DNA from: Fibrobacter sp.
GTDB lineage: Bacteria; Fibrobacterota; Fibrobacteria; Fibrobacterales; Fibrobacteraceae
NCBI RefSeq assembly: GCF_045131395.1
Contig: NZ_JBGUQY010000024.1
Location: 86,069 to 150,068 of the forward strand
Length of the DNA stretch: 64,000 nt
Direction: 5' to 3'
Shown: piece after piece, positions 47,033 through 64,000 of the stretch
Numbering within the stretch: the first letter of the stretch is position 1
How the letters are laid out: every line of letters begins with the position of its first letter
The notes under the pieces: model-generated
Databases searched by the model: none
What the model was told of the DNA's origin: nothing
What the model saw: the letters and a program-made list of their open reading frames with translations, nothing else
Program-made: the position numbers and the translations under genes

Positions 47033-48592
47033 TTAATCGTCTTCTTTTTTCGCGGGAATGTAGGGCTTATCAAGCGAATTGAGCTTGACATAGACTTCTA
47101 CATAAGCCGTACGCTCTTCAACATCCGGGGCCACCCCAATGGTATATCGAATCGCATATCCCGCAACAGCACGAATCTTATCCGAATCAAACTCATACGC
47201 CTCCCCAACACAAATGGTATCAAGCCAGATTTCATAATGAACGTTCGGATATCGAGGATCGTCCCACTCATCGCCATCCCATATTCTAGTATCATGTATC
47301 AACACGCTTCGTCCTTTATAAAGATCATCGACACCATACTCTGCTTTAAAGGCGTCCTCATCCATCAAATATTCGTCAGCATTCGTTTCTTTATCATCTC
47401 GATAAACACCCTGACAACATTCTTTATACAAAGTTTCAGGAGTTTTCTCTTCAAGAACATAATGGTAAATCAGGTCGTGTAAATCCTGCCATTCCTTCGT
47501 ATGGCCGGGCGTTTTCGAGGATGATTCATCCTTTTCAGGATCATAGAACGCTTCGGCATAGGCTTCTACATATTTTTCAAATTCGGGAACCGATTCCGTG
47601 TATTCCCATCCGGCAATATTTTTGCGAATTGTTTCCAATTGGCCGTTTTCTTTGGCTGAATGAGCCCAATTGGCAATTTTGGTTTTCATTTCAGCATCCC
47701 ACTCGCCCGTTTTGGTATAAGATTTCCTTAACGAGTCTACACTATAAGTAAGATGCGCATTCTTTTCTGATTCCGTCTGCGCCGTCAGGAGCACACTCGC
47801 CGCCAAAAGCGCCGCATTGCCATCCCCTGGCTTAAGGATATCCAAGTCTGCAAAATCACCGATATCGTCTTTAATGTCAAACAGCGCAAGGATTTCTTTT
47901 TTCGCCAGAGCCTTTGCTTCCGCCACAGGCATTTTCTTTTCTTCCACAAGATACATTATGCGGTCGTATTCAAGCTGCGTAAACACGTTAATATTCACAG
48001 TGCTGCGATTTTCCAAATTAACAAAGGCGTGCAGCAATACTTCTTTCTTCGACTTTGCCCCAGTATGTTCATCTAGATAATAACCCTCCACTTTGATTTT
48101 AGCGCACGAAGAAGCCATGTTAAGATTTTCAACATTGTACACTCCGTTTTCCATATCAATACGAGCATTCCAAAACTTTTCGTCACCACTCGTTCTTCTT
48201 AATGTTTCGCAATCAACTTCTCCCACCCAAACCGAACCGTCAATAAACGGGCCCTTCTGAGCAACGCCACTCAACGCCTTATTCTCGACCGCATATTCCT
48301 TGGAATCTTCAGAACTCGAAGAAACAGCCTTTTCAGAGTCAGAGGATTCTGCCTTTTCGGAACTTGAAGATTCGATTTTCTCGTTCTTTTCGGAACTCGA
48401 AGACTTCCCTTTTTTATCTTTGCCCGCAATCGAAGACGAAGAAGTGCCCTCGTCGTCACCGGATTCCACGTCCTCGATATATTCTTCCGAGTCTTCCCCG
48501 GCAACACCGCTGCTTTCGCTGGAGCAGCCCGTTACCACCAGAGCCATACTGACGGCTGCCAACGCCGTGATTTTTCCAAGTTTATTTTTCAT
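47033..48592 (-). CDS. lipoprotein: Ser/Glu-rich linker + shared N-module (type I) + C-terminal domain X
   Basis: Lipobox VVTGCS. SGVAQKGPFIDGS...NINVFTQLEYDRIMYLV...GDGNAALLAASV. The C-terminal ~130 aa are related to the C-terminus of 48619..49560. Confidence 0.8.
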   Translation of the reverse strand: MKNKLGKITALAAVSMALVVTGCSSESSGVAGEDSEEYIEDVESGDDEGTSSSSIAGKDKKGKSSSSEKNEKIESSSSEKAESSDSEKAVSSSSEDSKEYAVENKALSGVAQKGPFIDGSVWVGEVDCETLRRTSGDEKFWNARIDMENGVYNVENLNMASSCAKIKVEGYYLDEHTGAKSKKEVLLHAFVNLENRSTVNINVFTQLEYDRIMYLVEEKKMPVAEAKALAKKEILALFDIKDDIGDFADLDILKPGDGNAALLAASVLLTAQTESEKNAHLTYSVDSLRKSYTKTGEWDAEMKTKIANWAHSAKENGQLETIRKNIAGWEYTESVPEFEKYVEAYAEAFYDPEKDESSSKTPGHTKEWQDLHDLIYHYVLEEKTPETLYKECCQGVYRDDKETNADEYLMDEDAFKAEYGVDDLYKGRSVLIHDTRIWDGDEWDDPRYPNVHYEIWLDTICVGEAYEFDSDKIRAVAGYAIRYTIGVAPDVEERTAYVEVYVKLNSLDKPYIPAKKEDD

Positions 48593-48618: not shown

Positions 48619-49560
48619 TTAATCCTGTTTTGCCCTATACCTTACCGGGATCCATATTGAAAGATTTCCTTCAAGCCCCAAAGACTGGCAAAAATATCTA
48701 ACATCGTATATTGCGTACATTTCGACGTAAATCTCCGGCCAATTCGTCCCCACCAATATGGAATCCAATCCTGCTTTAAAGCGGCATTCCGGTTTATTGA
48801 GATTAGTCCAATTAAAACCTTCCCACAGAATTTCATCTTCATAAAGCCTATCCGTTAAATGCTGATCATAACCATCATATTGATATTCGGCAACGAAATC
48901 ATCCTTAGGCATTCTATACTCATCAAGTCTTAAAATTTTGTCGGAGCGATCCAGTCTGAAAGAACGAGTTTCATGCAAATATTGAATCGAATTATTCTCC
49001 ACTACGGACGTAACAGAATCTCTGATGATTTCCCATTCCTTTGCATTGTTTAGTTCAACCGATTCAGGCTCAGCAGATTCAATCGGTTCGATCTTTTCTT
49101 CAGAGTTTGAAGGTTCAGCCTGTTCAGTTTTTTCTTCTGAGGGATCTGTGGTTTCAGCCGGATCTGTCTTTTCTTCAGGTTCAGCTTTGTTCGGTTCAGT
49201 AGGTTCTTCAGGTGCGGCAACATCGCTAGATTCAGCCGGTTCTTCTGTTTCTGGAGTGGTTGTCGGCTTTTCTTCGGCTTCAGTATTTTCTTCGGCTTCG
49301 GCCGGTTCCTGTTCTTCAGATTCAGAGGTTTCAACTTCTTCTTCCGATGTTTCTTTACCCTTTGAAGATTCCTCGACCTCCGAAGATTCGATTTGTTCGT
49401 CGTTGCCGGATTCCACGACTTCGGAGTTTTCGTTCGCATCGATTGCATCCATGCTGTCGCCATCAACAGAGCAGCCTGTCACCACCAGAGCCGTGCACAA
49501 GTACATTGCCGATACAGACAACAGGCCTGCGCCAAGAACTTCGTACCATTTATTTTTCAT
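48619..49560 (-). CDS. lipoprotein: long acidic Glu/Pro/Thr-rich linker + C-terminal domain X (no N-module)
   Basis: Lipobox VVTGCS. ~140 aa of E/P/T/S-rich sequence. The C-terminus DEYRMPKDDFVAEYQYDG...ILWEGFNW...LDSILVG parallels DEYLMDEDAFKAEYGVDD...IWDGDEW...LDTICVG in the neighbouring gene. Confidence 0.75.
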   Translation of the reverse strand: MKNKWYEVLGAGLLSVSAMYLCTALVVTGCSVDGDSMDAIDANENSEVVESGNDEQIESSEVEESSKGKETSEEEVETSESEEQEPAEAEENTEAEEKPTTTPETEEPAESSDVAAPEEPTEPNKAEPEEKTDPAETTDPSEEKTEQAEPSNSEEKIEPIESAEPESVELNNAKEWEIIRDSVTSVVENNSIQYLHETRSFRLDRSDKILRLDEYRMPKDDFVAEYQYDGYDQHLTDRLYEDEILWEGFNWTNLNKPECRFKAGLDSILVGTNWPEIYVEMYAIYDVRYFCQSLGLEGNLSIWIPVRYRAKQD

Positions 49561-49605
49561 TTTTTCTTCCTTCTTTGTTGGAGTGTTTTGTATTCCTCAC
49601 ACCTA

Positions 49606-49613
49606 CAAATATA
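49606..49613 (-). promoter_or_regulatory. candidate -7 box TATATTTG (promoter D)
   Basis: Exact TATATTTG on the minus strand, 45 nt upstream of the ATG at 49560. Confidence 0.4.
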
Positions 49614-49701
49614 GGCTTTTTAACCAATCTAGAATACAAAATCATCATTTTTCTTTAAATTTTACCATTTTTAATGTTTTTATAAAATTTTAGGCAAGTT
49701 G

Positions 49702-49730
49702 GGATACAAAAGTTGTGTTCTTGGAATACA
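49702..49730. promoter_or_regulatory. distal word pair GGATACA / GGAATACA upstream of promoter D
   Basis: GGATACA at 49702-49708 and GGAATACA at 49723-49730. Further GAATACA at 49632-49638 and inverted TGTATTC at 49589-49595. Confidence 0.35.
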
Positions 49731-49756
49731 GAGTCTAAGCCACTCCATTCCATACG

Positions 49757-49786
49757 AAAAAGACCTCGCATTCGCGGGGTCTTTTT
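49757..49786. repeat. 30-bp repeat (terminator hairpin), copy 2
   Basis: Identical to 46974..47003. Lies 28 nt downstream of the stop of gene 49814..52099. Confidence 0.9.
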
Positions 49787-49813
49787 CGTAGGTCGGAGCG
49801 TTTTTTGACCTAA

Positions 49814-52099
49814 TTAATCTTTTATGCAACGGACAGGGTAGCCAGATTTTTTTTCATATCCATGCAAGCCTACTTCGCCCCCTTTAGACACAGACAAAGC
49901 TACCACAAGTTCATATTCTAGATGATCTCTGATAAAAAGTTCTTCCGAATTCCAATAGTCATCCGTCGAACTCCATATATACCCATACTCGCCATCATCG
50001 TCATAAATATACTCGCCAATATCCATATAAGCCACCGGAATTCTTTTGCGGCCAGAAGGGAGGAACGAAAAACCGTAAGGATTTTGTTCATACAAGGTAC
50101 TAGAAGCATTAAGCGCATCTCCGGCATCATTTACCCCACCAACCGCGAGCACCAATTCATAGAGTTCATCACGATTCGGTATATGCCAGCCAGCAGGGCA
50201 AACACCGCGTACAGGGAAAGTCGGAGTACAAACAACACCGTAGCCACAGCCTTTACCGTTTTCGCTCCATGTCGCAGCACTATCCATGGCCGCGCTCCAA
50301 AAATACAGGCGACCATACTTTGCGCAATATTTCAAGGAATCATTGTAGCAGAAACTGGTAGAATCCAAACTATCCGATGGTTGCAAAGAAGCATAATTCA
50401 AATTTTCCGCCATCCACCACTGTTTGCCAATTTTCACAGTCTTGTAAGTTTGACCGTCGCGGTCATCAGTCAAAGTTCCATACTCGCAATCATCCGAACC
50501 TCTTCTATTGCAAACCCGAGCAACCTCGATGCTGCTAGACGAATTCACCGAAGCAACAGAACTGCTGGAACTAGGCTCAACATCCATCATACAGCGAATA
50601 GATTTACTTATAGATTTATGATCAAGGAATGTAGCCGCATACTCGTTCGTATCCACATGTATGCCATACGCATAGCTAGTGCTTTCATCACTAGAAGTCC
50701 AGAAGAAACCTTCTCGTCCCTCAAATTGGAACACTCCACTCTCATTCTTGAAACCAGCAGGCAACGCAGTAAAGGAATAGTCATCCGTGCCGTTATGTCC
50801 TCCATCCCAACCAGTTGTTGATTTAAGCTTTCCGCCCGCTTCCCATCTTTCTCCAACCAGTTCGATTAGCGAGACAAACTCCTCTACGCTCGGCAAATGC
50901 CACCCTGTCGGGCAAGCATTCAACGCATCTTTCCAAGCATAAAGATGACCATATTTATCACAATAGCTCGCACTGTCATTATAGCAGTAACTGTTCGGCG
51001 TTTCGTAGTTCAAGTTTTCCGCCATCCACACTTGGCCACCGATTTTAGTCGTTCTATAAGTCCTTCCGTCGCGCAGGTCCTTGAGCGTATTTGCAGCCGC
51101 ATCGTACCTACTGCCCGCATCCGCCTTTACGGAACTGCTACTAGAAGACGAGTTCACCGAGTCAGCCGGAGAGACCGAGCTGCTGGATTGCTTCGTTTCA
51201 CTTCCAATGACGTCACTGGAGGAAGATCCTTCGACTTCGCTCAGGATGACACTGTCGCCATCCGCGGAAGTAACTACGGGAATGTACTTCTCGAATGCAG
51301 GGATGGAATCTCCATAGCCCAAGCCTTCGATATTCTTGCGGATAGAATCAAGTTTTCCGTTTGCCGAAGCTTCCGCAACCCATTCCGCAATCGCCTTTTT
51401 CGTTTCAGAGTCTTTCCACTCGCCGCTTTCGGCAAAGGAATCGTCAAAATTGTCGAGGCGCTTGGCAAGTGCGGTTTCATCGGCATCCCCCTGCATTATC
51501 ACGCTTACGGCCAGGAGCGCGGCGTTACCGTCGCCCGACTCAAAGATATTCAGGTTTTCAAATTCATCGACTTCGTCCTTGATATCGAAGGCGGCAAGAA
51601 CTTCCTTTTCGGCCTGGACTTTTGCCTTGGCCAAGGTTTTGCTCTTTTCTTTCACAAGATACATCATGCGTTCGTACGCCAGATTCGTAAGCAAGTTGAC
51701 GTTTACATTCTCGCGATCCTTGAGGTCGGTCAATGCGCGGAGCGTCAGTTCGCCCTTCGTCTTCTTGCCGGTAACTTCGTTCAGGTACCTACCCGTCACC
51801 TCGACCACTGCGCAAGAGGTATCCAATGCAACGCTGTCAAGAGCAAAGTCGCCCTTGTCACTCTTGATTGCACCCTCGAAAACCTGGTCCGTGAATTCCA
51901 GCGTCTTACAGTCAATGCCACGAACCGTCACGGCAGAGCCCTTCACGAACGGGCCCTTCTGGGCAACGCCCGCCACGTCGGCCACAAAGCCGGCATCTTC
52001 AGTGACACCGCCCGAAACGCGTTCTTCATCGTCGCTGGAGCATGCGGCAAACAGCACCGACATTCCCACAAACGCAGAAACAAACAAGTTACTCTTCAT
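49814..52099 (-). CDS. lipoprotein: shared N-module (type I) + two Fib_succ_major (TIGR02145/FISUMP) domains
   Basis: Lipobox LFAACS (ATG at 52099). GVAQKGPFVKGS...NVNLLTNLAYERMMYLV...GDGNAALLAVSV. Two copies of the D.RDG.TY+T.KIG.Q.WMAENLNY....YG.LY.W....CP.GWH.P pattern. Confidence 0.85.
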   Translation of the reverse strand: MKSNLFVSAFVGMSVLFAACSSDDEERVSGGVTEDAGFVADVAGVAQKGPFVKGSAVTVRGIDCKTLEFTDQVFEGAIKSDKGDFALDSVALDTSCAVVEVTGRYLNEVTGKKTKGELTLRALTDLKDRENVNVNLLTNLAYERMMYLVKEKSKTLAKAKVQAEKEVLAAFDIKDEVDEFENLNIFESGDGNAALLAVSVIMQGDADETALAKRLDNFDDSFAESGEWKDSETKKAIAEWVAEASANGKLDSIRKNIEGLGYGDSIPAFEKYIPVVTSADGDSVILSEVEGSSSSDVIGSETKQSSSSVSPADSVNSSSSSSSVKADAGSRYDAAANTLKDLRDGRTYRTTKIGGQVWMAENLNYETPNSYCYNDSASYCDKYGHLYAWKDALNACPTGWHLPSVEEFVSLIELVGERWEAGGKLKSTTGWDGGHNGTDDYSFTALPAGFKNESGVFQFEGREGFFWTSSDESTSYAYGIHVDTNEYAATFLDHKSISKSIRCMMDVEPSSSSSVASVNSSSSIEVARVCNRRGSDDCEYGTLTDDRDGQTYKTVKIGKQWWMAENLNYASLQPSDSLDSTSFCYNDSLKYCAKYGRLYFWSAAMDSAATWSENGKGCGYGVVCTPTFPVRGVCPAGWHIPNRDELYELVLAVGGVNDAGDALNASSTLYEQNPYGFSFLPSGRKRIPVAYMDIGEYIYDDDGEYGYIWSSTDDYWNSEELFIRDHLEYELVVALSVSKGGEVGLHGYEKKSGYPVRCIKD

Positions 52100-52952
52100 G
52101 ATCTCCATCCTTTTTTGTCGCAACCTTGCCGTCTTTCTTTAAACATACACTCATCGGGAACAATTGCAAGTTCAGGCGGTACACTTGCTCCGTGTCATCG
52201 TCTTCGGTCACGATGGCCATAATGCGGCGACGACAATCTGCAAGTTCCTTCCTAATGCGTTCGTAAGCGCGGCGGGTAATTCCCATGGTAAGGCCCGACA
52301 TGTCGCGTTCCGAAAGAGGCAAACTCAGCGCCTTGACGGCGAATTCAGCCATCTGGCGCTGCAAATCGCGGGCCGCCACGGGCACGGCGTCTACAGAGCC
52401 CATCGAAATGGCCTTGTCCGTCTGGTGGTAATTCCCGTCCTTGTCTTTTTTGAGGAGCTTGGCACGCAGCAAAAAGTCCAAGGTCTCGGAGACCTCGGCT
52501 GCGGTAATCGGCTGCTTGCAAGCCTTCGCCATTTCAAGCGGCTTTGCACCGGGCATGTGAGGAGCAAGCTCTCGCAGCACCGGGTTTTTCCACGATTTAA
52601 AATACTTGAACTCTTCGTCCCCCAGCACACGTACCTTGTGAGCCATGGCCAAAGCGCAGCGCTCTTCGAACGCGGCACGCTTCGCCTCGTCCCCCTTCGC
52701 ATGCGCATATGAAACCATCAGCACAAAGTACGTGTGTTCAAACCCCACCAACCCCATAGCACTCGCTACGGAACCTGCAGCCCCTACGCTCAGGTTTTTC
52801 TTCCCCTCACAGACATACTTCAGATAAACCGCCGACGAAAACCCTGCGTCTCGCGCAAAATCTCGCCAGGTAAACGCTGAAGTGCGCTTACGTTCATCGT
52901 AGTAGTCCTGGATGAACTTGCGGTAATCTGTGTATTCTACGATCTCCTTCAT
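52089..52952 (-). CDS. TIGR02147/DUF4423-family HTH protein (cassette A)
   Basis: MKEIVEYTDYRKFIQDYYDERKR..FTWRDFARDAGFSSAVYLKYVCEGKKNLS (XRE-like HTH). Its stop overlaps the next gene start by 11 nt. Confidence 0.85.
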   Translation of the reverse strand: MKEIVEYTDYRKFIQDYYDERKRTSAFTWRDFARDAGFSSAVYLKYVCEGKKNLSVGAAGSVASAMGLVGFEHTYFVLMVSYAHAKGDEAKRAAFEERCALAMAHKVRVLGDEEFKYFKSWKNPVLRELAPHMPGAKPLEMAKACKQPITAAEVSETLDFLLRAKLLKKDKDGNYHQTDKAISMGSVDAVPVAARDLQRQMAEFAVKALSLPLSERDMSGLTMGITRRAYERIRKELADCRRRIMAIVTEDDDTEQVYRLNLQLFPMSVCLKKDGKVATKKDGDHEE

Positions 52953-52957
52953 GGATA

Positions 52958-52965
52958 CAAATATA
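52958..52965 (-). promoter_or_regulatory. candidate -7 box TATATTTG, 5 nt from the ATG (near-leaderless geometry)
   Basis: The minus strand reads TATATTTG-TATCC-ATG. Confidence 0.4.
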
Positions 52966-53055
52966 GACTAATTGCATAATCTCGGGACACAAATCAGCCT
53001 TTTTCTTTCAAATTTTACCAATTCTGCATAATTTTAAAAATTTCAGCAATTTCAA

Positions 53056-53082
53056 GAATACAGCCTGTATTCCAGGAATACA
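53056..53082. promoter_or_regulatory. cassette-A-specific words GAATACA / TGTATTC / GAATACA
   Basis: Words at 53056-53062, 53066-53072 (inverted) and 53076-53082. They lie ~105-130 nt upstream of the regulator ATG. Confidence 0.35.
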
Positions 53083-53147
53083 AGAATTCACTATACCTTT
53101 GGTATATTACCAAAAGCATAGTGTGCTTTGGGAACACTTTAACGCAT

Positions 53148-55142
53148 TTATTTCTTTTTATACTGCGTGTGAATTATTATAGAATAACCGTATACAAACT
53201 TGGTCAAAGTATTACCAGCCATCGCTGAGGCGGCACGCATTCCGGCCCCCACATGAACATCAACTTCAAACTTCGCCATTTCGGTTTCTTTTTCGTACAA
53301 ATGGCGTATAATAATTTCGCTTTTCGTCACGATATGATCATGATTATATTTCGCAGGATCATACTCCTTCTCGGCAACCGTATCCGACTTCACATACGTA
53401 AAGCCATTTTCAAGCAGCAAATTTCTAAACACTTCAAGGCTATCCCCAGCCGCATCCTCTTTCGATTGATCCATGAGGATTGTACTAAAAGTTTGCATCT
53501 GAACCCAAGCTGTATCCGTCTCATAATGAGCAGTCCAAACTGTTGTAAGGGAGTCGTCATCCCAAGCATCCAGACTTTTCAACGAAAGGTATTCTGCCGC
53601 AAAGTCAAATTCTTTTGACAATTTATCAAAACGAAGCGAGCTATAATCGGTCGTCGGCATTTCTTCGAAGCCGTCTTTCAGCACCACGACCTTCACCTTA
53701 AAGGAAAAATCACTACCAAACATAATACCCAGAACTCGTTCCTTCGAAATAGAAATCTTGTAAAGAACGTTTTCCTTTTTTAACGAATAAACATACGACA
53801 GCGTATCATACCACGCGGCATCTAGGGAATCATTATTTATGACACCTTCAAAAGAAAATTCTTTATCCCCCATCGTCTTTACCAATGCGCTAGCAACGGA
53901 ATCCCTTCCGCTCTGATAGCTTTCCTGTTTTGCCTGAAGGAACCAAACTTCCTGCTTGCCTTCGCCAAAGCTCCTGTAGCCGATGAACGAATATGTCGAA
54001 TCGAATAAGTCTAGTTCCGCAGGAAGAGGCGGAATCGTATCTTCGGGTTCACTAGAAGAAGAGCTTACAAACGGATCATAGAGAGAACTCGACGAAACGT
54101 CAGCGGAACTACTAGACCCTTCGACTCCGCTCGGGGTGACACTAGAAGACGATTCAGGTTCATCACCCGGAATATGCCAGCGGCCCTTTTCGCACACGAA
54201 GTATTCGTTGTACAGTTTACTGAGCTTGTTTATGTTGCGCTTGGTTTCGTTTTCGCGTTTGTCGGTGCAGGCGCCGAGGCCGTAGTTATCCCACCAGAAG
54301 TTCGTCACATACTTTTCGAATGCGGGTACGGTGTCGGCATATTTCCAACTTTCCACGTTCTTGCGTATCTTCGAAAGGGAGCCCTTCAAGTCTATATCGC
54401 AGGCCCAATCCGCAATCAAGGCCTTGGTGTCGGCATCGTCCCAGCTACCACCCTCTGCAAGCGATATACTGAATTCGCCGATACGTTCGGTAAGTCCCGC
54501 CACGTCCACATCGCTTTGCAGGAGTACACTTACCGCGAGGAGCGCGGCGTTGCCATCACCCGTCTTGAAGATGTTCAAGTCTTCGGATTCACCAAAGTCG
54601 CCCGCGATTGCAAACGACGCTAGGACCTCTCCTTCGGCCTGCGCCTTCGCATCGGCAATGGACATTTTCTTCTTGTTGACCAAGTACATCACGCGCTCAT
54701 ATTCCAAATGCGTGAGCAAGTTGATATTCACCGTCTTTCTACTCGAAAGATCCGTCAGCGCGCGCAGCGTCACCATGCCCGAAGACTTCTTGCCAGAAAC
54801 TTCGTCGCGGTAATACCCCGTCGCCTCGAGAATCGCATACTGCGATTCCAGATTAATATCCTTGATGGCAAAGTCGCCCTTGTCGCTCTTGATGGAGCCC
54901 TTGAAACTCTTGCCTGTCTGCTTGAGCGTGATACCGTCCAGTTCCTGCACGGCCACTGCGGAACCCGTAACGAACGGACCCTTCTGCGACACTCCGGCCA
55001 CTTCCAAGTCTACGACAGCGGTAACGCCGGCATCGCCCGAAGCACCGCCACCGAGATCCATACTATCGGAGTCGCCTCCGGAACAAGCCCAGAACATGGC
55101 CCCGACTACAAGACTCCCTATAATGCGATTTCTCTTCATCAT
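53148..55142 (-). CDS. lipoprotein: shared N-module (type I) + unrelated ~330-aa C-terminal region
   Basis: Lipobox MFWACS (start at 55142; alternative ATGs at 55157 and 55175). GVSQKGPFVTGS...NINLLTHLEYERVMYLV...GDGNAALLAVSV. The C-terminal part has no FISUMP motif. Confidence 0.8.
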   Translation of the reverse strand: MMKRNRIIGSLVVGAMFWACSGGDSDSMDLGGGASGDAGVTAVVDLEVAGVSQKGPFVTGSAVAVQELDGITLKQTGKSFKGSIKSDKGDFAIKDINLESQYAILEATGYYRDEVSGKKSSGMVTLRALTDLSSRKTVNINLLTHLEYERVMYLVNKKKMSIADAKAQAEGEVLASFAIAGDFGESEDLNIFKTGDGNAALLAVSVLLQSDVDVAGLTERIGEFSISLAEGGSWDDADTKALIADWACDIDLKGSLSKIRKNVESWKYADTVPAFEKYVTNFWWDNYGLGACTDKRENETKRNINKLSKLYNEYFVCEKGRWHIPGDEPESSSSVTPSGVEGSSSSADVSSSSLYDPFVSSSSSEPEDTIPPLPAELDLFDSTYSFIGYRSFGEGKQEVWFLQAKQESYQSGRDSVASALVKTMGDKEFSFEGVINNDSLDAAWYDTLSYVYSLKKENVLYKISISKERVLGIMFGSDFSFKVKVVVLKDGFEEMPTTDYSSLRFDKLSKEFDFAAEYLSLKSLDAWDDDSLTTVWTAHYETDTAWVQMQTFSTILMDQSKEDAAGDSLEVFRNLLLENGFTYVKSDTVAEKEYDPAKYNHDHIVTKSEIIIRHLYEKETEMAKFEVDVHVGAGMRAASAMAGNTLTKFVYGYSIIIHTQYKKK

Positions 55143-55208
55143 CCATTCCTTATTCATAAATTTTCTCTCTCCCATATCTAAAATTTCTTTTCTTGACGCA
55201 TCATCACC

Positions 55209-56924
55209 TTAGTTCTTCACGCAACGGACTCGGGCATCCGTTAGCGGTCTCTCTTTAACCAAATAACCATTGGTAGAAATTTCGACACCATAGTCGCCTG
55301 CAGGTCCAGAAACAAGACGATCAGCCAAAGCCTCTTGCTCTTCTTCTAAAAGGTACGGCCAAATTTCCACAATTTCTACATCGGCCAATCTATAACGATA
55401 AGTATTTTGCGTATACGAATGGTAATAGGCCTTCAAGTATACAGTATCCATCGGTGTAAAGCCGAAATCTAAATTATTGTAGAATACGTCAGTCATACCT
55501 TTTTGATAAGCAACATCCATATCCGACGTTTTCCACGTTTCATTAAACAGCTTTTTGACACCACCGGCATAATCAATCAAGTTTTTCCACTCTTCGGTAT
55601 TGGACACATGCCACCCATCTGGACAAATACCTTGATGAACAGAATCGATCAAATCATTTTTAACAACCATCCCCATGTATCTGTCCTCAATTTGCATAGC
55701 CTTCGTCCAGATATAGGCACCATCAGATTTGTATTTGAGGTCCTCCGCCATCCATTCATATTTTTTTCCTTTGTATTCAAAACTAACAGTCTTGTATTTG
55801 CGCCCATCACGAGAATCAGTCATGATTCCTATTTCGTGTTCAACATTCGCCATGAGAGAATCAAGGTGCTCTTTCGTTGTCAAGCGCCAATAATATCCAT
55901 TGCAAAGGAAATAACCCGATTGAAGGAATTCATCGCCATAACTTATCGGCTTATTGAATTCTCTGTATTCTCCCCAAAGTGCCTCGGTACAAGATTCTAA
56001 ACCCATGTAATGCTGAATCAGCTGCGCACTGAAATCGGACATTCGTTTCTCGGACATTATTTTAGTCCAAACATAGGCAATGCCAGCGAGGCCTTGCATA
56101 AGCGAATCGTCAAGAACTCCGTCATCTGCGAAATCATTGACAAATTCATCGACATAATCTTGCAGTTTGGAGCAATCAACATCATGTGCTACATCATCAT
56201 CCATATTAAAATTATCGCGCATTATTTCAATAATTTCATCAGAAGATGCAGAGTACCATGCATTCCAATTTGGATTTTCATCAATGATGCGACTAATGTA
56301 GTAGAGAGTTCTATCTGCATCAGATGTATTGTAAATATTCAAATCCTCTGCAGAGGGCGTTTCAATCTTGGCACCAAATGCACCAAGAACCTCTGTTGCA
56401 GCCCGTCTCTTAGCCTCAGCAAAAGACTCGCCCTCTTTGATTAAGTTCAAAACTCGTTTGTATTCGAAATGAGTCAAAAGGTTGACATTCACGGTTTCAC
56501 GTTTCTCCAAATTAGAAACCGCATCAAGGCGCATAGAGCATCTTGAAATTTCGCTATTGCTTTCGTGGTGATAGCGGCCTTCTACAGAAATAAGCACATA
56601 CTGACTTTCCAAATCTAGACTATCAAACTGAAATTCACCCTCGTCATTAAAAGTCTTAACAACGAACTTTCGACCTGTGGGTTCAAAACTTCCATCATCA
56701 GATGTTTCTCTGAGGGTTACAGTGGAACCTTTCACAAACGGGCCCTTCTGCGACACACCGGCAATTCTCTTATTCGAAATACCCACAATGCCAGCATCAC
56801 CCGACGCGCCACCGGAAATATCTTGATCAGAATTTGAGCAACCCGCAACAAAGACCGCCATCATTGCCATCAACGGGATATATACCAGCCCGCGCCTCAT
56901 CTTTTGACTCATGTTATTACTCAT
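55209..56924 (-). CDS. lipoprotein: shared N-module (type II) + one Fib_succ_major domain
   Basis: Lipobox FVAGCS. GVSQKGPFVKGSTVTLRETSDDGSFEPTGRKF...NVNLLTHFEYKRV. The C-terminus has DSRDGRKYKTV...WMAEDLKY...GICPDGWHVSNTEEW. Confidence 0.85.
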   Translation of the reverse strand: MSNNMSQKMRRGLVYIPLMAMMAVFVAGCSNSDQDISGGASGDAGIVGISNKRIAGVSQKGPFVKGSTVTLRETSDDGSFEPTGRKFVVKTFNDEGEFQFDSLDLESQYVLISVEGRYHHESNSEISRCSMRLDAVSNLEKRETVNVNLLTHFEYKRVLNLIKEGESFAEAKRRAATEVLGAFGAKIETPSAEDLNIYNTSDADRTLYYISRIIDENPNWNAWYSASSDEIIEIMRDNFNMDDDVAHDVDCSKLQDYVDEFVNDFADDGVLDDSLMQGLAGIAYVWTKIMSEKRMSDFSAQLIQHYMGLESCTEALWGEYREFNKPISYGDEFLQSGYFLCNGYYWRLTTKEHLDSLMANVEHEIGIMTDSRDGRKYKTVSFEYKGKKYEWMAEDLKYKSDGAYIWTKAMQIEDRYMGMVVKNDLIDSVHQGICPDGWHVSNTEEWKNLIDYAGGVKKLFNETWKTSDMDVAYQKGMTDVFYNNLDFGFTPMDTVYLKAYYHSYTQNTYRYRLADVEIVEIWPYLLEEEQEALADRLVSGPAGDYGVEISTNGYLVKERPLTDARVRCVKN

Positions 56925-56949
56925 TGTTCAACTCCTTGTTTAAACCATT

Positions 56950-57771
56950 TTATTTTTTCAAACGTTCGCTCATGGGGAACAGCTGCACGTTCAGGCGATA
57001 AACCTGTTCCGTTTCATCATCTTCTGTCGCAATCGCCACCACGCGGCGGTAATAATCTTCCGTCTCTTTTTTGATGCGCTCGTACGCGCGGCGCGTTAGG
57101 CCAAGCGTGTAACCCGACATGACTCGTTCCGAAATCGGCAAGTCAATGGACTTGAGGGCGAATTCGCCCATCTGGCGCTGCAAATCGCGAGCCGCCAGCG
57201 GCACCGCCTCTACCGGGGCCATTTTAATCGCCTTGTCCGTTTGGCGGTAATTTCCGTCGCGGTCCTTCTTCAAGAGCTTCGCCTTCACCAAAAAGTCAAG
57301 AGTCTCGGAAACTTCCGCCGCCGAAATTTTAGGCTTGCAGGCATGGGCAATTTCAAGAGGCTTTGCGCCCGGCATGTGCGGGGCCAGTTCGCGGATTACA
57401 GAATTTTTCCACGACTTGAAATACTTGAATTCCTCGTTTCCGAGGATGCGCACCTTGTGGGCGTTCGCCAGCGCGCAGCGTTCCTCGAAAGCGGCCTTCT
57501 TCGCCTCGTTGCTCTTTGCATGCGCATAAGAAACCATCAAGACAAAGTATTCGTGTTCGAAACCGACAAGCCCCATGGCAGTAGCCACCGAACCCGCCGA
57601 CCCGACGCTCAAATTCTTTTTCCCTTCGCAGACATACTTCAAGTAGACATCCGACGAAAAGCCCGCCTTTTGGGCGAAAGCGTGCCAGGAGAAAGCCGAG
57701 CAGCGCTTGCGTTCATCGTAATAGTCCTGAATGAACTTGCGATAATCAGTGTATTCTACTATTTCCTTCAT
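56950..57771 (-). CDS. TIGR02147/DUF4423-family HTH protein (cassette B)
   Basis: MKEIVEYTDYRKFIQDYYDERKRCSAFSWHAFAQKAGFSSDVYLKYVCEGKKNLS. Confidence 0.85.
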   Translation of the reverse strand: MKEIVEYTDYRKFIQDYYDERKRCSAFSWHAFAQKAGFSSDVYLKYVCEGKKNLSVGSAGSVATAMGLVGFEHEYFVLMVSYAHAKSNEAKKAAFEERCALANAHKVRILGNEEFKYFKSWKNSVIRELAPHMPGAKPLEIAHACKPKISAAEVSETLDFLVKAKLLKKDRDGNYRQTDKAIKMAPVEAVPLAARDLQRQMGEFALKSIDLPISERVMSGYTLGLTRRAYERIKKETEDYYRRVVAIATEDDETEQVYRLNVQLFPMSERLKK

Positions 57772-57776
57772 GTCTA

Positions 57777-57784
57777 CAAATATA
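57777..57784 (-). promoter_or_regulatory. candidate -7 box TATATTTG, 5 nt from the ATG
   Basis: The minus strand reads TATATTTG-TAGAC-ATG. Confidence 0.4.
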
Positions 57785-57871
57785 GATTCATCTAGTCCAT
57801 TTAGAACATAAAATTTGCGTTTTTAAGCAAATTTTACCACTTTTCAGCATTTTACTAAAATTTCAACATTC

Positions 57872-57901
57872 TAGAACATGGTCAGCATATTCCTAGAACA
57901 T
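57872..57901. promoter_or_regulatory. cassette-B-specific word TAGAACAT x2 (22-bp spacing)
   Basis: Copies at 57872-57879 and 57894-57901, plus a proximal copy at 57802-57809. Confidence 0.35.
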
Positions 57902-57936
57902 GAAAGCAACGGAGCCGAACGGTCTCACAAGAAAGA

Positions 57937-57958
57937 CCTCGCTAGCGTCCTAGCGAGG
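57937..57958 (-). terminator. terminator hairpin after gene 58037..59572
   Basis: CCTCGCTAG(CGTC)CTAGCGAGG, followed on the minus strand by TCTTTCTT. Confidence 0.5.
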
Positions 57959-58036
57959 CTTCTCTCCTAACCGTCCCCTTGCCCGACTCCATCGGGCCCA
58001 AACGAGGGGACTCAAATGTATTTTACCATGCCAGTC

Positions 58037-59572
58037 CTAGTTCTTCACGCAGCGGACAGGATAATACAAATCCCGGTGGAACACACGATTCGAATTCCAA
58101 TTCCAGACATTTTCCACGACGAAACCTAGATCATCTACCAAGTCGAGCGTGAAATTGTATTCAAAATCAACATAAAAGCGACTACTTTTATCTAGCGACT
58201 TTTTCGCACCCGAATCCGTATACTGCAAATAAACAAATAATTCACGAGTTTCATAGTCATCCCTCATCGCATCCCACAAAGACCTCCATTCTTCAACATA
58301 GGGAAGATGCCATCCATCCGGGCAAATGCCTTGGATAAATTCACTAAACAACATCTGGTTATGGATATCCGCCTCCAAGCCCACGTAGCTAAACTTTTCA
58401 TCAGCAGGATAATCAAACACCTGATAACCGTAGTACTCGCGTCCCACCCCGGGAACATTGCGGGCATCGGCCTTAAAACTGTTCTTGGGTTCATATTCCA
58501 AAAGGCTCGCCATCCAAGTCGCAATTCTACCGTTCTCCATTTTGACATCTAAAGTCTTATAGACATGGCCATCTCGTTCATCAACCAAGGCGCCATATTT
58601 GCCTGCAGTATCCACAGGTTCATCACCTTCGTCTCTGGCCCCATGGTAATATTTCCACACACCATCGCGACAAATTACGCGACTATAAAGGCTATCATTA
58701 AACCGGGTCGTTCTCCAGACTTCATCCTGATTGAGGCAGTGTTCCCAGGTAGAATCCCAAGGAGATGCGAACTGCTTCAAATATTTCTGGAAATCGGGAA
58801 TTTCTGTTGCGCCCATATTCTTTAAATTTTGCAAGACCCCTTTGTATACGCCATCATGATTGTCCATCGAGACAAAGCGCTTTATCTGGGCAATCAAAAC
58901 GCTGTCATCCCAAATACCGTCTTCTTCTAGATCCATCGCAATAGAAGCCAAACGGCTAGTGACCTCGCCAACATTGGCGGCCGTAAGCATCATCAAAGAG
59001 ATTGCAAGCAATTTAGCATCACTTTCGCCATTGTTCAAAATATCAAGATCTTCAAAGGACTCTTCCGATTCAGAGAAACCAAACGCTTCCAACACTTCCT
59101 TTTCAGCTTGACGCTTCGCCTTATCGACAGGATTTCCATTTTTGACAAGGTAACGAATTCGATTGAAGGACAAATGAGTCAGAATATTAATATTGACATG
59201 ATCCCGGTCCTGTAAATCAACAAGACTGTTCAACGATATTTTTTGAGCAGAGGTGTCACCCGTTATTTCATCGATATAGTAGCCGTTCGCCACAAGCCAA
59301 GCGTAACGATTTTCCAAATTAATTTTTTTCAGGGTGTATTCACCACTATTGTTGTCTATTTCCGTGGAAAAATGCGTTCCCGTCTGAATCAGTCCCTCAT
59401 CCATTCCATAAAGGGTTACTTCAGTTCCCTTTACGAAAGGCCCCTTCTGCGACGTTCCGTAAATAGTTCTGCTTCCTTCCGACAATGCGGAACTTGAATC
59501 GTTCTGACTGCACGCCGCAAGGAACATTCCTAGAACAAACAAAACGCTAATTTGTTTATATCCCTTAAACAT
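58037..59572 (-). CDS. lipoprotein: shared N-module (type I) + one Fib_succ_major domain
   Basis: Lipobox FLAACS. GTSQKGPFVKGT...NINILTHLSFNRIRYLV. The C-terminus has DERDGHVYKTL...GICPDGWHLPYVEEW. Confidence 0.85.
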   Translation of the reverse strand: MFKGYKQISVLFVLGMFLAACSQNDSSSALSEGSRTIYGTSQKGPFVKGTEVTLYGMDEGLIQTGTHFSTEIDNNSGEYTLKKINLENRYAWLVANGYYIDEITGDTSAQKISLNSLVDLQDRDHVNINILTHLSFNRIRYLVKNGNPVDKAKRQAEKEVLEAFGFSESEESFEDLDILNNGESDAKLLAISLMMLTAANVGEVTSRLASIAMDLEEDGIWDDSVLIAQIKRFVSMDNHDGVYKGVLQNLKNMGATEIPDFQKYLKQFASPWDSTWEHCLNQDEVWRTTRFNDSLYSRVICRDGVWKYYHGARDEGDEPVDTAGKYGALVDERDGHVYKTLDVKMENGRIATWMASLLEYEPKNSFKADARNVPGVGREYYGYQVFDYPADEKFSYVGLEADIHNQMLFSEFIQGICPDGWHLPYVEEWRSLWDAMRDDYETRELFVYLQYTDSGAKKSLDKSSRFYVDFEYNFTLDLVDDLGFVVENVWNWNSNRVFHRDLYYPVRCVKN

Positions 59573-59573
59573 A

Positions 59574-60404
59574 TTAATCCTCCATAAACCAGCCTTTTAA
59601 AACAGAATGCAGCATCTGTGAATCAAACCGTTCATAGTCATCCCCCGCAAGGATGTCAACAAAATTGTCTAGATAATTCTGAACTTCTTCACAGTATTTT
59701 TCGGGTTCCTCTTCATACTGTGTATAATAAGTTTTATGGTCTCTAGAATGCCAATGAACAGTTCCATACTCCTCACCGAAGAGGATATGGTCAACAAAGG
59801 TGCTGATTTTTTTCAGAGCCTTGTCGGCATCCCCGCTATTGTTGATATTCAGATTTTCAGAATCTTCCGCCAAATCATCGTAGTAGAACGCCTTCATCAA
59901 TTCTTGACGGGCCTGTTTCTTGGCTTCTGTAAAGGTCTTTCCTTTCTTTATCAAAGCAAGCGTGCGATCGTATTCCAGATGCGTCAGCACATTCACATTA
60001 ATTTGCTCTCGATTGTTAATATCAGACAAAGCCCTCAGACTGACTTGGCACACTGAATTTTCAGCCGTCGTTTCTCTTTTATAGTAACCAGTAGCTTCAA
60101 GCCTTACATATTGACATTCCAAATTGAGGCCATCAATCTTGAAATCACCCTTATCGCTACGGGTTGTTGCAAAGAATTCCCTGCCCGTGGGTTCGAAGTT
60201 TCCTTCTGCTGAGGTTTCCCGGAGGACAATACTGGATCCCGTTACAAAAGGTCCCTTCTGCACCACACCGGCAAGTTCCTTATCTACAATAGCAACAATG
60301 CCTTCGGACTCTTCGCTGGTACCCGCGGTATTGCTTTCTAAACAAGCACTAAGCATCGTCCCCAAGGAGCATGCACACAAAATCCAATTCAAACGCCTAA
60401 ACAT
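59574..60404 (-). CDS. lipoprotein: shared N-module (type II) only, no C-terminal domain
   Basis: ATG at 60404 gives MFRRLNWILCACSLGTMLSAC. GVVQKGPFVTGSSIVLRETSAEGNFEPTGREF...NVNVLTHLEYDRT. Its stop is 1 nt before the next ATG. Confidence 0.8.
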   Translation of the reverse strand: MFRRLNWILCACSLGTMLSACLESNTAGTSEESEGIVAIVDKELAGVVQKGPFVTGSSIVLRETSAEGNFEPTGREFFATTRSDKGDFKIDGLNLECQYVRLEATGYYKRETTAENSVCQVSLRALSDINNREQINVNVLTHLEYDRTLALIKKGKTFTEAKKQARQELMKAFYYDDLAEDSENLNINNSGDADKALKKISTFVDHILFGEEYGTVHWHSRDHKTYYTQYEEEPEKYCEEVQNYLDNFVDILAGDDYERFDSQMLHSVLKGWFMED

Positions 60405-61257
60405 TTTCACCCCCATTGTTCTCATCCCGGCCGCCATTCAAATTGTCTGTCAGCGGGAACAGTTGCATATTCAATCGATAAACCTTTTCTACGTTCTTGT
60501 CTGCCGAGACAATCGACACGATGCGCTTGCGGCATTCTATAAGTTCTTCAATGACCTTCTCGTAGCTTTCGGCAGTCATACCCATGGTAACGCCGCTAAA
60601 GTGACGTTCCGAAATAGGCACGTCGTCTAAAGACTCTAGCGCAAATTCGCCCATCTGGCGTAGCAGGGAATGAACCGCCACCGAAACCACCTTCAGGCGA
60701 CCAGTGGAAAGAGAATGGTTCGTCTGATGATACAAGCCCTTGATATCCTTTGTCAAGAAACCCGCACTGGTCAGAAAGCGAAGACTGTTGCTCACATCGG
60801 CTGCAGAAATAGGGAAACGGCAGGCTTTCGCGATTTCGTGCGGTTTTGCCCCGGGCATAGCCACAGCCAATTCACGGACCACGGAATGTTTCCACGTTTC
60901 ATAGAAGGTGTACATTTCGCTGCCCAAAATTTTCACATGGTGTGCCGAACTCAATGCTTCCATTTCTTCGAAGCATTTTTTCTTTTCGCGGTCTGTTTTT
61001 GCGTTTTCGTATCGAACCATCAAAACGAAGTAGTCGAACTCAAACCCCAGCAACCCCATCGCCAGGGCAGTCTTCTTTGCTCCTTCCTCCCGAAGCCTTG
61101 TTTTGCCATCGCAAACCAGCTTCAAGTATGAACCCGATGCGAAACCAGCAATCTTTGCAAACTCGCGCCAGGTAAACGCCGACGTGCGCTTGCGTTCGCG
61201 GTAGTAGTCAAGTACGTACTCGCGATAATCTTTGTATTCAATAACTGATTTCATCAT
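60397..61257 (-). CDS. TIGR02147/DUF4423-family HTH protein (cassette C)
   Basis: MMKSVIEYKDYREYVLDYYRERKRTSAFTWREFAKIAGFASGSYLKLVCDGKTRL. 8-nt overlap with the next gene. Confidence 0.85.
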   Translation of the reverse strand: MMKSVIEYKDYREYVLDYYRERKRTSAFTWREFAKIAGFASGSYLKLVCDGKTRLREEGAKKTALAMGLLGFEFDYFVLMVRYENAKTDREKKKCFEEMEALSSAHHVKILGSEMYTFYETWKHSVVRELAVAMPGAKPHEIAKACRFPISAADVSNSLRFLTSAGFLTKDIKGLYHQTNHSLSTGRLKVVSVAVHSLLRQMGEFALESLDDVPISERHFSGVTMGMTAESYEKVIEELIECRKRIVSIVSADKNVEKVYRLNMQLFPLTDNLNGGRDENNGGENV

Positions 61258-61370
61258 GACAATAAAATAGATAATCCCATCTATTCATGCAACAATTTTT
61301 AAAAAACAAAAATGTCGTTTTTAAGCAAATTTAAGCACTTTTTGTTTTACGCTAAAGAAATTTCAATTTC

Positions 61371-61402
61371 ATAAAACAAAATACGGAATATATAAAACAA
61401 AA
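61371..61402. promoter_or_regulatory. cassette-C-specific word ATAAAACAAAA x2 (21-bp spacing)
   Basis: Copies at 61371-61381 and 61392-61402. Inverted TTTGTTTTA at 61341-61349. A-rich variant at 61301-61312. Confidence 0.35.
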
Positions 61403-61403
61403 A

Positions 61404-61424
61404 GGGCTAGGTTTTTCCTAGCCC
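61404..61424 (-). terminator. rho-independent terminator after the GLUG-protein gene
   Basis: GGGCTAGG(TTTTT)CCTAGCCC, followed on the minus strand by a T-run. Confidence 0.6.
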
Positions 61425-61443
61425 TTCCTGCCCTTAAAACAAG

Positions 61444-63936: not shown

Positions 63937-63984
63937 AAAACCTCCACAAATCCATTTAGATTTATTTATCCAAAATAATCTATG

Positions 63985-63992
63985 CAAATATA
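63985..63992 (-). promoter_or_regulatory. candidate -7 box TATATTTG
   Basis: Exact TATATTTG on the minus strand, ~50 nt upstream of the ATG at 63936. GGAGG lies 4 nt before the ATG. Confidence 0.4.
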
Positions 63993-64000
63993 ACAAAATG

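Follow-up and report, generated by a model that had tools for sequence, protein, structure and literature searches.

What reads the short repeated words that stand in front of the surface-protein cassettes of Fibrobacter? We addressed this question in a 64,000-nucleotide stretch of Fibrobacter sp. DNA (assembly GCF_045131395.1, contig NZ_JBGUQY010000024.1, positions 86,069 to 150,068), which in its whole length is called the window below. Three gene cassettes, A, B, and C, are each headed there by a gene for a TIGR02147/DUF4423 protein, and the regions upstream of the cassettes keep one architecture while each carries a repeated word. A reading made from the letters of this DNA only (the sequence-only reading) had proposed that the words are operator or activator sites that co-diverged with paralogous helix-turn-helix (HTH) proteins and thereby insulate the cassettes from one another. 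Our analysis makes it fairly probable that the words are operator half-sites read by the XRE-like HTH of the TIGR02147 protein encoded directly downstream, and that each cassette would thus be an autoregulated unit. The three regulator genes are the following (ORF, open reading frame):

52089..52952, minus strand: regulator A, 287 amino acids, heading cassette A; followed by a FISUMP gene (49814-52123).
56950..57771, minus strand: regulator B, 273 amino acids, heading cassette B, which also holds a FISUMP gene (55209-56924) and an ORF (53148-55175).
60397..61257, minus strand: regulator C, 286 amino acids, heading cassette C, which also holds an ORF (59574-60437) and a FISUMP gene (58037-59572).

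Regulators A and B are 80% identical, and C shares 52-54% identity with A and B. The bit scores of the three proteins against NCBIfam TIGR02147 were 328.7 (A), 334.4, and 285.2 (cut-off 50), and those against Pfam DUF4423 ranged from 90.7 to 99.9 (cut-off 30). No further paralog was found in the window.

From 46 to 64 kb every gene is encoded on the minus strand, and the blocks and words of the sequence-only reading are those of the antisense strand. Every coordinate given for them was verified in the window sequence. The block CAAATTTTACCA is present exactly at 53009 and 57828, with one mismatch at 49656 and with two at 61326; at one mismatch or fewer it occurs within the 64 kb only in three of the four regions. 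The block AAAATTTCA stands at 53037 and 57857, and AAATTTCA at 61358. The A word GAATACA is found at 53056 and 53076 with an inverted copy at 53066, the B word TAGAACAT at 57802, 57872, and 57894 (its only three occurrences in the window), and the C word ATAAAACAAAA at 61371 and 61392 with an inverted one-mismatch copy at 61340-61350. The distal direct pairs are spaced by 20 (A), 22 (B), and 21 bp (C). In gene sense the words read TGTATTC (A), CATGTTC(TA) (B), and TTTGTTTTAT (C). The list of copies was correct as far as it went, but it had overlooked a proximal copy in A (52985-52991) and in C (61303-61310), and an inverted copy in B (57886-57892). The fourth region, 49561-49813, had been counted as a regulatory region of the same kind. 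It does hold the same module, but it precedes a lipoprotein-like ORF instead of a TIGR02147 gene and carries the A word. We refer to it as R0, and to the regions upstream of regulators A, B, and C as RA, RB, and RC.

The anatomy of the module was derived from a minus-strand alignment of the four regions and then of 52 related regions. These came from a comparison set of 79 loci (named L001 and so on), of which 70 were obtained in one scan for TIGR02147 relatives and nine by look-ups of C orthologues. Read in gene sense, the module consists of a terminator, a dyad, a third direct half-site, an A-tract spacer, a fourth half-site, a -7 box, and the ATG. In 54 regions of the A/B type the half-sites start at -131/-130, -121/-120 (inverted), -111..-108, and -40..-37 relative to the ATG. 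The dyad, a half-site, three nucleotides, and an inverted half-site, covers -131..-114 and is centred near -122, the third half-site follows it after 4-5 nt at about -109, and the fourth occupies -39..-33. The third and the proximal half-sites are 69-74 bp apart, most often 70. Within the A/T-rich stretch between them lie gAAATTT, AAAArTGGTAAAATTTG, and tAAAAACG, followed by ATTTT with the fourth half-site and about 20 variable nucleotides. The modules of the window are composed as follows:

53056..53082, minus strand: module A distal operator, TGTATTC-CTG-GAATACA-GGC-TGTATTC, in 10-bp steps at -130, -120, and -110.
52992..53050, minus strand: module A spacer, A-tracts phased at about 10 bp, including CAAATTTTACCA (53009-53020) and AAAATTTCA (53037-53045).
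52985..52991, minus strand: module A proximal half-site, TGTGTCC at -39..-33, where a -33/-35 element would be.
52958..52966, minus strand: module A -7 box, CTATATTTG (TAnnTTTG), ending 5 nt before the ATG (52950-52952).
57874..57902, minus strand: module B distal operator, CATGTTC-TAG-GAATATG-N5-CATGTTC.
57811..57873, minus strand: module B spacer, six A-tracts 8.5-10.5 bp apart, with CAAATTTTACCA (57828-57839) and AAAATTTCA (57857-57865).
57804..57810, minus strand: module B proximal half-site, TATGTTC at -39..-33.
57777..57785, minus strand: module B -7 box, CTATATTTG; the ATG is at 57769-57771.
61373..61401, minus strand: module C distal words, two direct copies of TTTTGTTTTAT, 21 bp apart.
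61303..61372, minus strand: module C spacer and proximal site, proximal TTTTTGTTTTTT at 61303-61310 and an inverted copy at 61340-61350.
61326-61337 and 61358-61365, minus strand: module C blocks, CAAATTTAAGCA and AAATTTCA, respectively.
61258..61302, minus strand: module C core promoter, TTGCA, about 20 nt, CTATTTTAT, TGTC, and ATG; kept in C orthologues.
49702..49730, minus strand: module R0 distal operator, TGTATTC-CAA-GAACACA-N5-TGTATCC (A word), with the dyad at 49714-49730.
49606..49701, minus strand: remainder of module R0, A-tract spacer with a block at 49656-49667, proximal TGTATTC (49632-49638), and -7 box CTATATTTG (49606-49614).

The distal half-site positions of module A also hold in 39 A-type loci. 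High-information columns of the 52-locus alignment coincide with the half-sites, the A-tracts, and the -7 box, and the flanks are not conserved. This is the layout of an autoregulatory operator, with a dyad upstream of the regulator's own gene and a site that abuts the -35 region. The window and the 79 loci together contain 72 modules, and after 67 of these a TIGR02147-like ORF comes directly. The remaining five comprise four copies of the R0 lipoprotein promoter with the A word and one probable chance match in L068. The latter locus, which encodes a 41%-identical paralog, displays upstream of that gene, at 2780-2920, five to six 21-bp tandem repeats TGATAACACGTGTTTRCAT, each with the palindrome ACACGTGT; they replace the layout of three distal half-sites and one proximal half-site (3+1) by an iteron-like operator array within the TIGR02147 family.

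How often such repetition arises by chance was estimated with first-order Markov simulations, 2000 runs per region. The observed multiplicity was reached in 225/2000 runs for RA (a 7-mer three times), 20/2000 for RB (an 8-mer three times), 3/2000 for RC (an 8-mer four times), and 54/2000 for R0, so that the evidence of a single window is by itself no more than suggestive. Clusters of at least three half-sites were restricted in the 64 kb to R0 and RA for the A class, to RB for the B class, and to RC for the C class, and the exact A-type dyad TGTRTTC-N3-GAAYACA was present only at 53066-53082 and 49714-49730. The sequence-only reading had allowed that the words might turn out to be ordinary promoter elements shared genome-wide. 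In the 64-kb window we rejected this possibility, as blocks, dyads, and B and C words were confined to the four regions. GAATACA as such occurs 24 times in the window versus about 7 expected. A wider regulon was considered as the cause of this excess and discarded, there being no other clusters, and three of the matches being the coding motif EYTDYR at the regulator N-termini. These copies, at 52931, 57750, and 61233 (minus strand), fall on conserved EYT/EYK codons 16-20 nt after each regulator ATG.

If word and regulator belong together, paralog and word should correlate when TIGR02147 upstream regions of related genomes are aligned, as the sequence-only reading had expected. This was borne out: A and B words were split by clade, and the C word was kept in C orthologues. 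Among 52 A/B-clade loci from many Fibrobacter species, TGTRTYC is present in 39 and [CT]ATGTTC in 13, with no overlap other than a single stray A-pattern 7-mer in L032, outside the aligned sites. At half-site position 2, all A loci (39/39) have G and all B loci (13/13) have A; this holds for the proximal site as well as for the left arm of the dyad, and the right arm shows the complementary change. Position 4 (A/G) is mixed within the modules of the window. C orthologues carry TTTGTTCTATAGAA or TTTTGTTTTAT distally and ATTTTGTTTTTTAGAAAATGTTGCA proximally in 7 distinct sequences; their alignment has 12 rows, several of them duplicates, and L074 and L075 are offset through a different start call. 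More distant paralogs have a word of their own at both the distal and the proximal position: TATATTGTRAAA in group D (copies 71-73 bp apart), TTATCATAAATC with an inverted copy in group E (68 bp apart), and TATCATGATACA / TGTATCATAG in the single-locus paralog L066 (70 bp apart). In a matrix of longest exact proximal-distal matches, the diagonal was highest for groups A-E, with small margins in AT-rich DNA; anchoring on the box failed in the MKA loci L035 and L039 and in the C locus L076, and for L036 at least the box chosen was wrong. Directly upstream of a D-like paralog module, L054:2765-2805 consists of a 7-bp tandem repeat, AACTAGT, in at least 6 copies, a tract that may be slippage-prone.

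The words of the window had been presented as different sequences. They are not unrelated: A (TGTRTTC), B (CATGTTC), and C (TTTGTTY) are 2-3-base variants of one ancestral half-site, NNTRTTC.

The N-terminal part of the regulator was modelled with AlphaFold 2 (AF2). The model of residues 1-105 reached a predicted local distance difference test score (pLDDT) of 88 and a predicted template modelling score (pTM) of 0.78, with helices at 29-36 and 41-48. Foldseek against the PDB returned mainly XRE-type HTH domains among the top 50 matches (probability 0.9-1.0). The best match had a root-mean-square deviation of 1.6 A over 61 columns at a probability of about 1.0, and target-normalised template modelling scores went up to 0.74. 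DdrO, C.AhdI, C.BclI, C.Esp1396I, lambda cI, SinR, ClgR, and HigA are among the fold matches, and a winged-helix-like segment (122-177) follows the domain. On the basis of these models, an XRE-like HTH at the N-terminus is credible. Five alignment columns separate A from B proteins, and these include T28S and R30H/Q at the start of HTH helix 2, where residues of the XRE fold face the DNA. Differences between C and A at 39, 41, 42, and 46 lie in and just before helix 3. Positions 28, 30, and 39-46 are thus candidate specificity residues in the model. A literature search returned no mention of TIGR02147, and DUF4423 once, in a Bdellovibrio proteome paper.

Several observations weigh against regulators reading their own words. 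Repeats within single regions are weakly to moderately significant (p about 0.1 to 0.002), the words differ at only 2-3 of 7 bases, and the proximal site consists of one half-site without a partner, an unusual target for dimeric HTH proteins. On the protein side, Foldseek E-values for this short domain are only about 0.1-0.4, a Pfam search with residues 1-106 up to E = 10 gave only HTH_AraC (E = 0.19) and CYNS_N (E = 0.21) and no HTH_3-like profile, sequence searches of the PDB with phmmer and hmmsearch were empty or insignificant, and the full-length AF2 model is poor (pLDDT 67, pTM 0.42), its own Foldseek matches being informative at the domain level only. Two paralogs with one A-class word between them occur in many genomes, as in the pairs L010/L035, L013/L041, L004/L018, and L020/L025; the main A clade together with the MKA subclade is one such combination. 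Because these paralogs share a genome as well as a word, specificity cannot rest on the word alone. Finally, the B clade is monophyletic inside the A clade. A changed to B in a single event, so that covariation cannot be separated from ancestry and any feature particular to the clade would show the same correlation; no repeated independent word switch was found among the loci compared.

The last two points also speak for a different origin of the pattern, in which one or more unlinked factors, for instance a nucleoid protein or a global regulator, bind the words, or the words are duplication scars, and the match of word and paralog reflects joint duplication. Word and protein could then have diverged by descent alone, one word class would naturally be common to several paralogs, and the A-tract blocks, which are present in all paralogs, would need no paralog-specific reader. 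Neutral copies, however, would not stay invariant while the flanks decay, and drift would not turn all 3-4 copies of a module into the same variant. That all copies changed alike and were then fixed while their neighbours drifted is not explicable by descent alone. As for an unlinked factor, the TIGR02147 protein is the only predicted DNA-binding protein of each cassette, and 67/72 modules abut its gene. We consider this alternative quite improbable. The proposed co-divergence of words and paralogous HTH proteins thus stands in part: clade-specific words and A/B-separating residues are consistent with it, but they trace to one event and not to repeated covariation.

The conserved blocks of the sequence-only reading are not isolated boxes. 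CAAATTTTACCA and AAAATTTCA belong to an array of phased A-tracts, in which 5-6 A-tracts with centres 8.5-11 bp apart fill the roughly 70 bp between the third and the fourth half-sites in RA, RB, RC, and R0. Phased A-tracts were also present in the independent paralog groups C, D, and E. In 51 A/B loci the AA power spectrum showed a sharp peak at 9.5-10 bp; its z-scores are inflated by kinship, and the pattern is visible in each sequence. At least four A-tracts in helical phase (about 10-11 bp) are the sequence mark of intrinsically curved DNA, and the spacer, which has them, is predicted to be curved. The distance from block to proximal word is fixed at 28-29 nt and that from block to core promoter is not, the promoter lying about 11 nt (one helical turn) further from the block in L038 and in groups D and E. 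On account of this spacing, we read the blocks as a spacer with intrinsic curvature whose position is tied to the operator sites. Before the central tract, TG(G/C) is conserved, which may leave room for an additional sequence-specific reader or for a second promoter.

Such a second promoter (P2), or an UP-element-like contact of RNA polymerase, could account for the blocks in place of a bend. P2 would be formed by AAATTTG, 19-20 nt, and (T)AAAATTTG; a class-I-type activator would bind at the distal dyad, some 70 bp before P2, the transcribed leader would include the proximal word, and transcription would be expected to start downstream of TGGTAAAATTTG. AAAATTTG matches TAnnTTTG, the Bacteroidetes-type -7 box, at 7/8 positions and has TTTG 19-20 nt upstream in many loci. 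In addition, TGGTAAAAT resembles an extended -10, a sigma-70 scan picked TTTATA-16-TAAAAT with an upstream TG at 49686-49659, and TG(G/C) is conserved more than bending alone would need. Against this, the fixed distance of the blocks is that to the proximal word, the -33-like TTTG is TTTT in many loci, and the 5-6 periodic A-tracts reach well past promoter hexamers. The sigma-70-like sites numbered 26 versus 17.3 in shuffled sequences (standard deviation 4.4), a slight excess that is not significant. P2 therefore appears unlikely to us. Three further candidates were tried and rejected. A sigma-54 promoter in TGGTAAAATTTGC would have a GG-GC spacing that is 2 nt too short, with an unconserved GC (TTTGAA in RA, TTTAAA in R0); an integration host factor (IHF) site in the block found no acceptable match to WATCAANNNNTTR on either strand by eye; and the sigma-70 consensus scan gave no consistent promoter.

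The core promoter adjoins the proximal half-site. TATATTTG, which fits TAnnTTTG, starts at -13 (-13..-6) in 53/54 A/B regions and leaves 5 nt between box and ATG. In the form CTATATTTG it is present in R0, RA, and RB and invariant in A/B loci. In the window 11/44 matches to TAnnTTTG are intergenic (25% in 10% of the sequence, a 2.5-fold enrichment), and TATAAT is depleted in intergenic DNA (2/45), the counts being small for both boxes. This suggests that this Fibrobacter uses a Bacteroidetes-type -7 box. A literature search returned nothing on Fibrobacter promoters or transcription starts. The second element of such promoters, a -33 TTG 19-21 nt upstream, is missing in the A/B regions, where the last half-site bases (..TTC) take the -33/-35 position and the nearest TTTG is 23-24 nt away. 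It is present elsewhere, as TTGCA in C and as TTGAC in groups D and E and in L038. In the latter, TTGAC, 18-20 nt, and TATATTTG come right after the proximal word; groups D and E continue with a 60-90-nt leader containing AGGAGG, and L038 combines TTGAC with a start that is probably leaderless. Compared with these loci, the A/B clade has lost about 11 nt including TTGAC; this moved the half-site from about -50 to about -39 and probably made the gene leaderless.

There is no room for a Shine-Dalgarno sequence between TATATTTG and the ATG in the A/B regions. Because R0 has the same box with a leader of 45 nt after it (to the ATG at 49558-49560), the box is a promoter element and not a translation signal. 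The mRNAs of regulators A, B, and C are probably leaderless or nearly so, starting at or within about 3 nt of the ATG.

With the TIGR02147 protein as the reader of the words, these elements can be combined into a mechanism. An oligomer of the regulator, possibly a dimer of dimers, would occupy the distal and proximal half-sites together, and the curved A-tract spacer would let so short a DNA bend or loop. The proximal subunit would then be placed where region 4 of sigma would touch the -33/-35 element, and would replace or occlude this contact. Because this element is missing in the A/B clade, we lean towards activation. Positive autoregulation, as with lambda CI at PRM or with the C proteins of restriction-modification systems at their own leaderless genes, is slightly favoured in this assessment, and repression by occlusion comes close to it in likelihood. 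In this genome a different regulator would control each of three units: cassette A with the R0 lipoprotein operon, cassette B, and cassette C. In its strongest form the proposal would make the TIGR02147-FISUMP cassettes mutually insulated, self-activating switches, in which a tetramer wraps about 100 bp of curved DNA, one subunit replaces the -35 element, and the mRNA is leaderless. Co-diversification of word and HTH would allow each such cassette, with its surface proteins for adhesion or substrate binding, to be switched on by itself, perhaps in a bistable manner. We regard this extended form, taken as a whole, as doubtful. The insulation claimed by the sequence-only reading agrees with the different words of the three window cassettes, but it is not general, as the A word is shared by paralogs and by R0.

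The dyads might also act in RNA, in termination or attenuation of read-through, or serve as recombination sites for inversion, cassette shuffling, or phase variation. The module A dyad (53084-53064) was indeed flagged as terminator-like in a scan, modules sit exactly at the cassette boundaries between surface-protein genes, and the inverted half-site at about -120 and the direct proximal half-site at -39 flank the A-tract segment. Proper GC-rich terminators are, however, already present just upstream:

57936..57959, minus strand: intrinsic terminator of cassette C, immediately before module B.
49762-49781, 53089-53123, and 61404-61424: analogous terminator hairpins.

Moreover, pairing is impossible for the third and fourth copies, which are single half-sites in direct orientation and yet co-vary with the dyad, and a search of Rfam gave no match other than a sub-threshold Leu_leader (E = 0.3). 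Recombination is opposed by arms of 7 bp, too short for known invertases, by a -7 box that lies outside the would-be invertible segment, and by the absence of any inverted-orientation variant among the 52 aligned loci. Invertible promoters have flanking inverted repeats together with a recombinase; the ten ORFs spanning most of the stretch from 48.6 to 64 kb contain no recombinase domain, and the combination is not found here. A role in RNA or recombination is very improbable in our view, and operator half-sites remain the preferred reading of the words.

The hairpin at 53089-53123 (minus strand), CACTATGCTTTTGGTAATATACCAAAGGTATAGTG, has a 16-bp stem and no clear T-tail and lies just upstream of the A-type dyad. 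Its core, GTAATATACCAAA, occurs once per locus at an equivalent place in at least 9 loci of different species (L001, L010-L013, L015, L017, L020, and L027), some 160-240 nt before the regulator gene begins. The hairpin may be a conserved terminator that belongs to the preceding unit, or an element in its own right. Cassette C is directly preceded by an ORF of 850 amino acids (61444-63996, minus strand) with a C-terminal type IX secretion system (T9SS) sorting domain; the T-run of its terminator merges into the first C word.

The cassette genes other than the regulators either encode FISUMP proteins (TIGR02145/Fib_succ_major) or have no family match. The latter are three minus-strand ORFs without a Pfam or NCBIfam match, 53148-55175 (675 amino acids), 59574-60437 (287 amino acids), and 47033-48592 (519 amino acids), all co-oriented with the FISUMP genes and presumably co-transcribed with them. 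No paralogous family of Fibrobacter is larger than FISUMP (TIGR02145), of which every Fibrobacteres genome except that of C. alkaliphilus has 17-119 copies, and its proteins are suspected adhesion or cellulose-binding components (PMC4704652). The gene that follows R0 is not a TIGR02147 gene:

48619..49560, minus strand: lipoprotein-like ORF, 313 amino acids, with the start MKNKWYEVLGAGLL...C, downstream of R0.

R0 and the lipoprotein gene are kept as a pair in L001, L002, and L021. Protein A of L001 is identical to that of the window, and the upstream DNA of L001 is slightly different. The R0 lipoprotein operon, which lies inside cassette A, is predicted to be an extra target of the A-word regulator. 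The R0 leader contains an extra inverted A-type half-site, GAGGAATACAAAAC in gene sense (49589-49595, plus strand), about 12 nt past the -7 box, which could be an additional, repressing operator.

That paralogous transcription factors keep operators of their own is a well-known principle. What is distinctive here is an uncharacterised regulator family with a promoter module of 3+1 half-sites, a spacer predicted to be curved, a probably leaderless start, and clade-specific words. The analysis gives a candidate DNA motif for three regulators, the anatomy of their promoters, candidate specificity residues, and a predicted target in R0, a result that is useful and not paradigm-changing. If regulators do read their own words, assignments of regulator to surface-protein cassette would become predictable across rumen Fibrobacter genomes, and the locus would offer a compact natural example of operator/HTH co-divergence with an unusual 3+1 layout and a curved spacer. 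Were the cassettes in addition switches, they would be a Fibrobacter counterpart of the regulatory logic of polysaccharide utilization loci (PULs), built from a family without a characterised member.

The closest established parallel is lambda CI at OR/PRM, an XRE-fold HTH autoregulator, as the TIGR02147 proteins are predicted to be, with related half-sites that differ by few bases. In both systems an operator abuts the -35 region of the regulator's own promoter. The cI mRNA from PRM is leaderless, and distant operators of lambda cooperate by looping. Lambdoid phages such as 434 and P22 owe their immunity specificity to co-diverged repressor-operator pairs. Unlike CI, the Fibrobacter regulators are chromosomal and head surface-protein cassettes, and no divergent lytic promoter is present. 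The module has 3+1 half-sites with a phased A-tract spacer of about 70 bp where lambda has three tandem 17-bp operators, and the C-terminal part is a DUF4423 region with a winged-helix-like segment instead of the oligomerisation and RecA-cleavage domain of CI.

The controller (C) proteins of restriction-modification systems, such as C.AhdI, C.PvuII, and C.Esp1396I, are among the nearest fold matches of the regulator N-terminal domain. They are small XRE-type HTH proteins, and the dyad C-boxes that they bind come immediately before their own gene, which is typically leaderless. Depending on concentration they first activate and then repress, and different groups recognise different C-box sequences. 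In the window, by contrast, no methyltransferase or endonuclease domain that would indicate a restriction-modification gene pair was found among the neighbours, which are FISUMP, lipoprotein-like, and T9SS-sorted proteins. The Fibrobacter protein is also 3-4 times larger, with a DUF4423 region and no similarity at the sequence level, and its operators are split by a curved 70-bp spacer, whereas C-boxes are two adjacent dyads.

Two operator sets less than a persistence length apart, to be bridged via a central bend that makes so small a loop feasible, recall the loops of GalR/HU, AraC I1-O2, and DeoR. Here the bend would be intrinsic, made by phased A-tracts in place of HU or IHF; at 70-92 bp the spacer is much shorter, and looping itself is inferred. 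The wiring of Bacteroidetes PULs by hybrid two-component systems, SusR, or extracytoplasmic function sigma/anti-sigma pairs likewise provides each surface-protein cassette with a dedicated regulator, and Fibrobacter is a member of the same FCB (Fibrobacteres-Chlorobi-Bacteroidetes) group with a TAnnTTTG-type promoter box. The two differ in that the TIGR02147/DUF4423 family is unrelated to the PUL regulators, and in that the cargo consists of FISUMP-domain proteins and not of SusC/D pairs.

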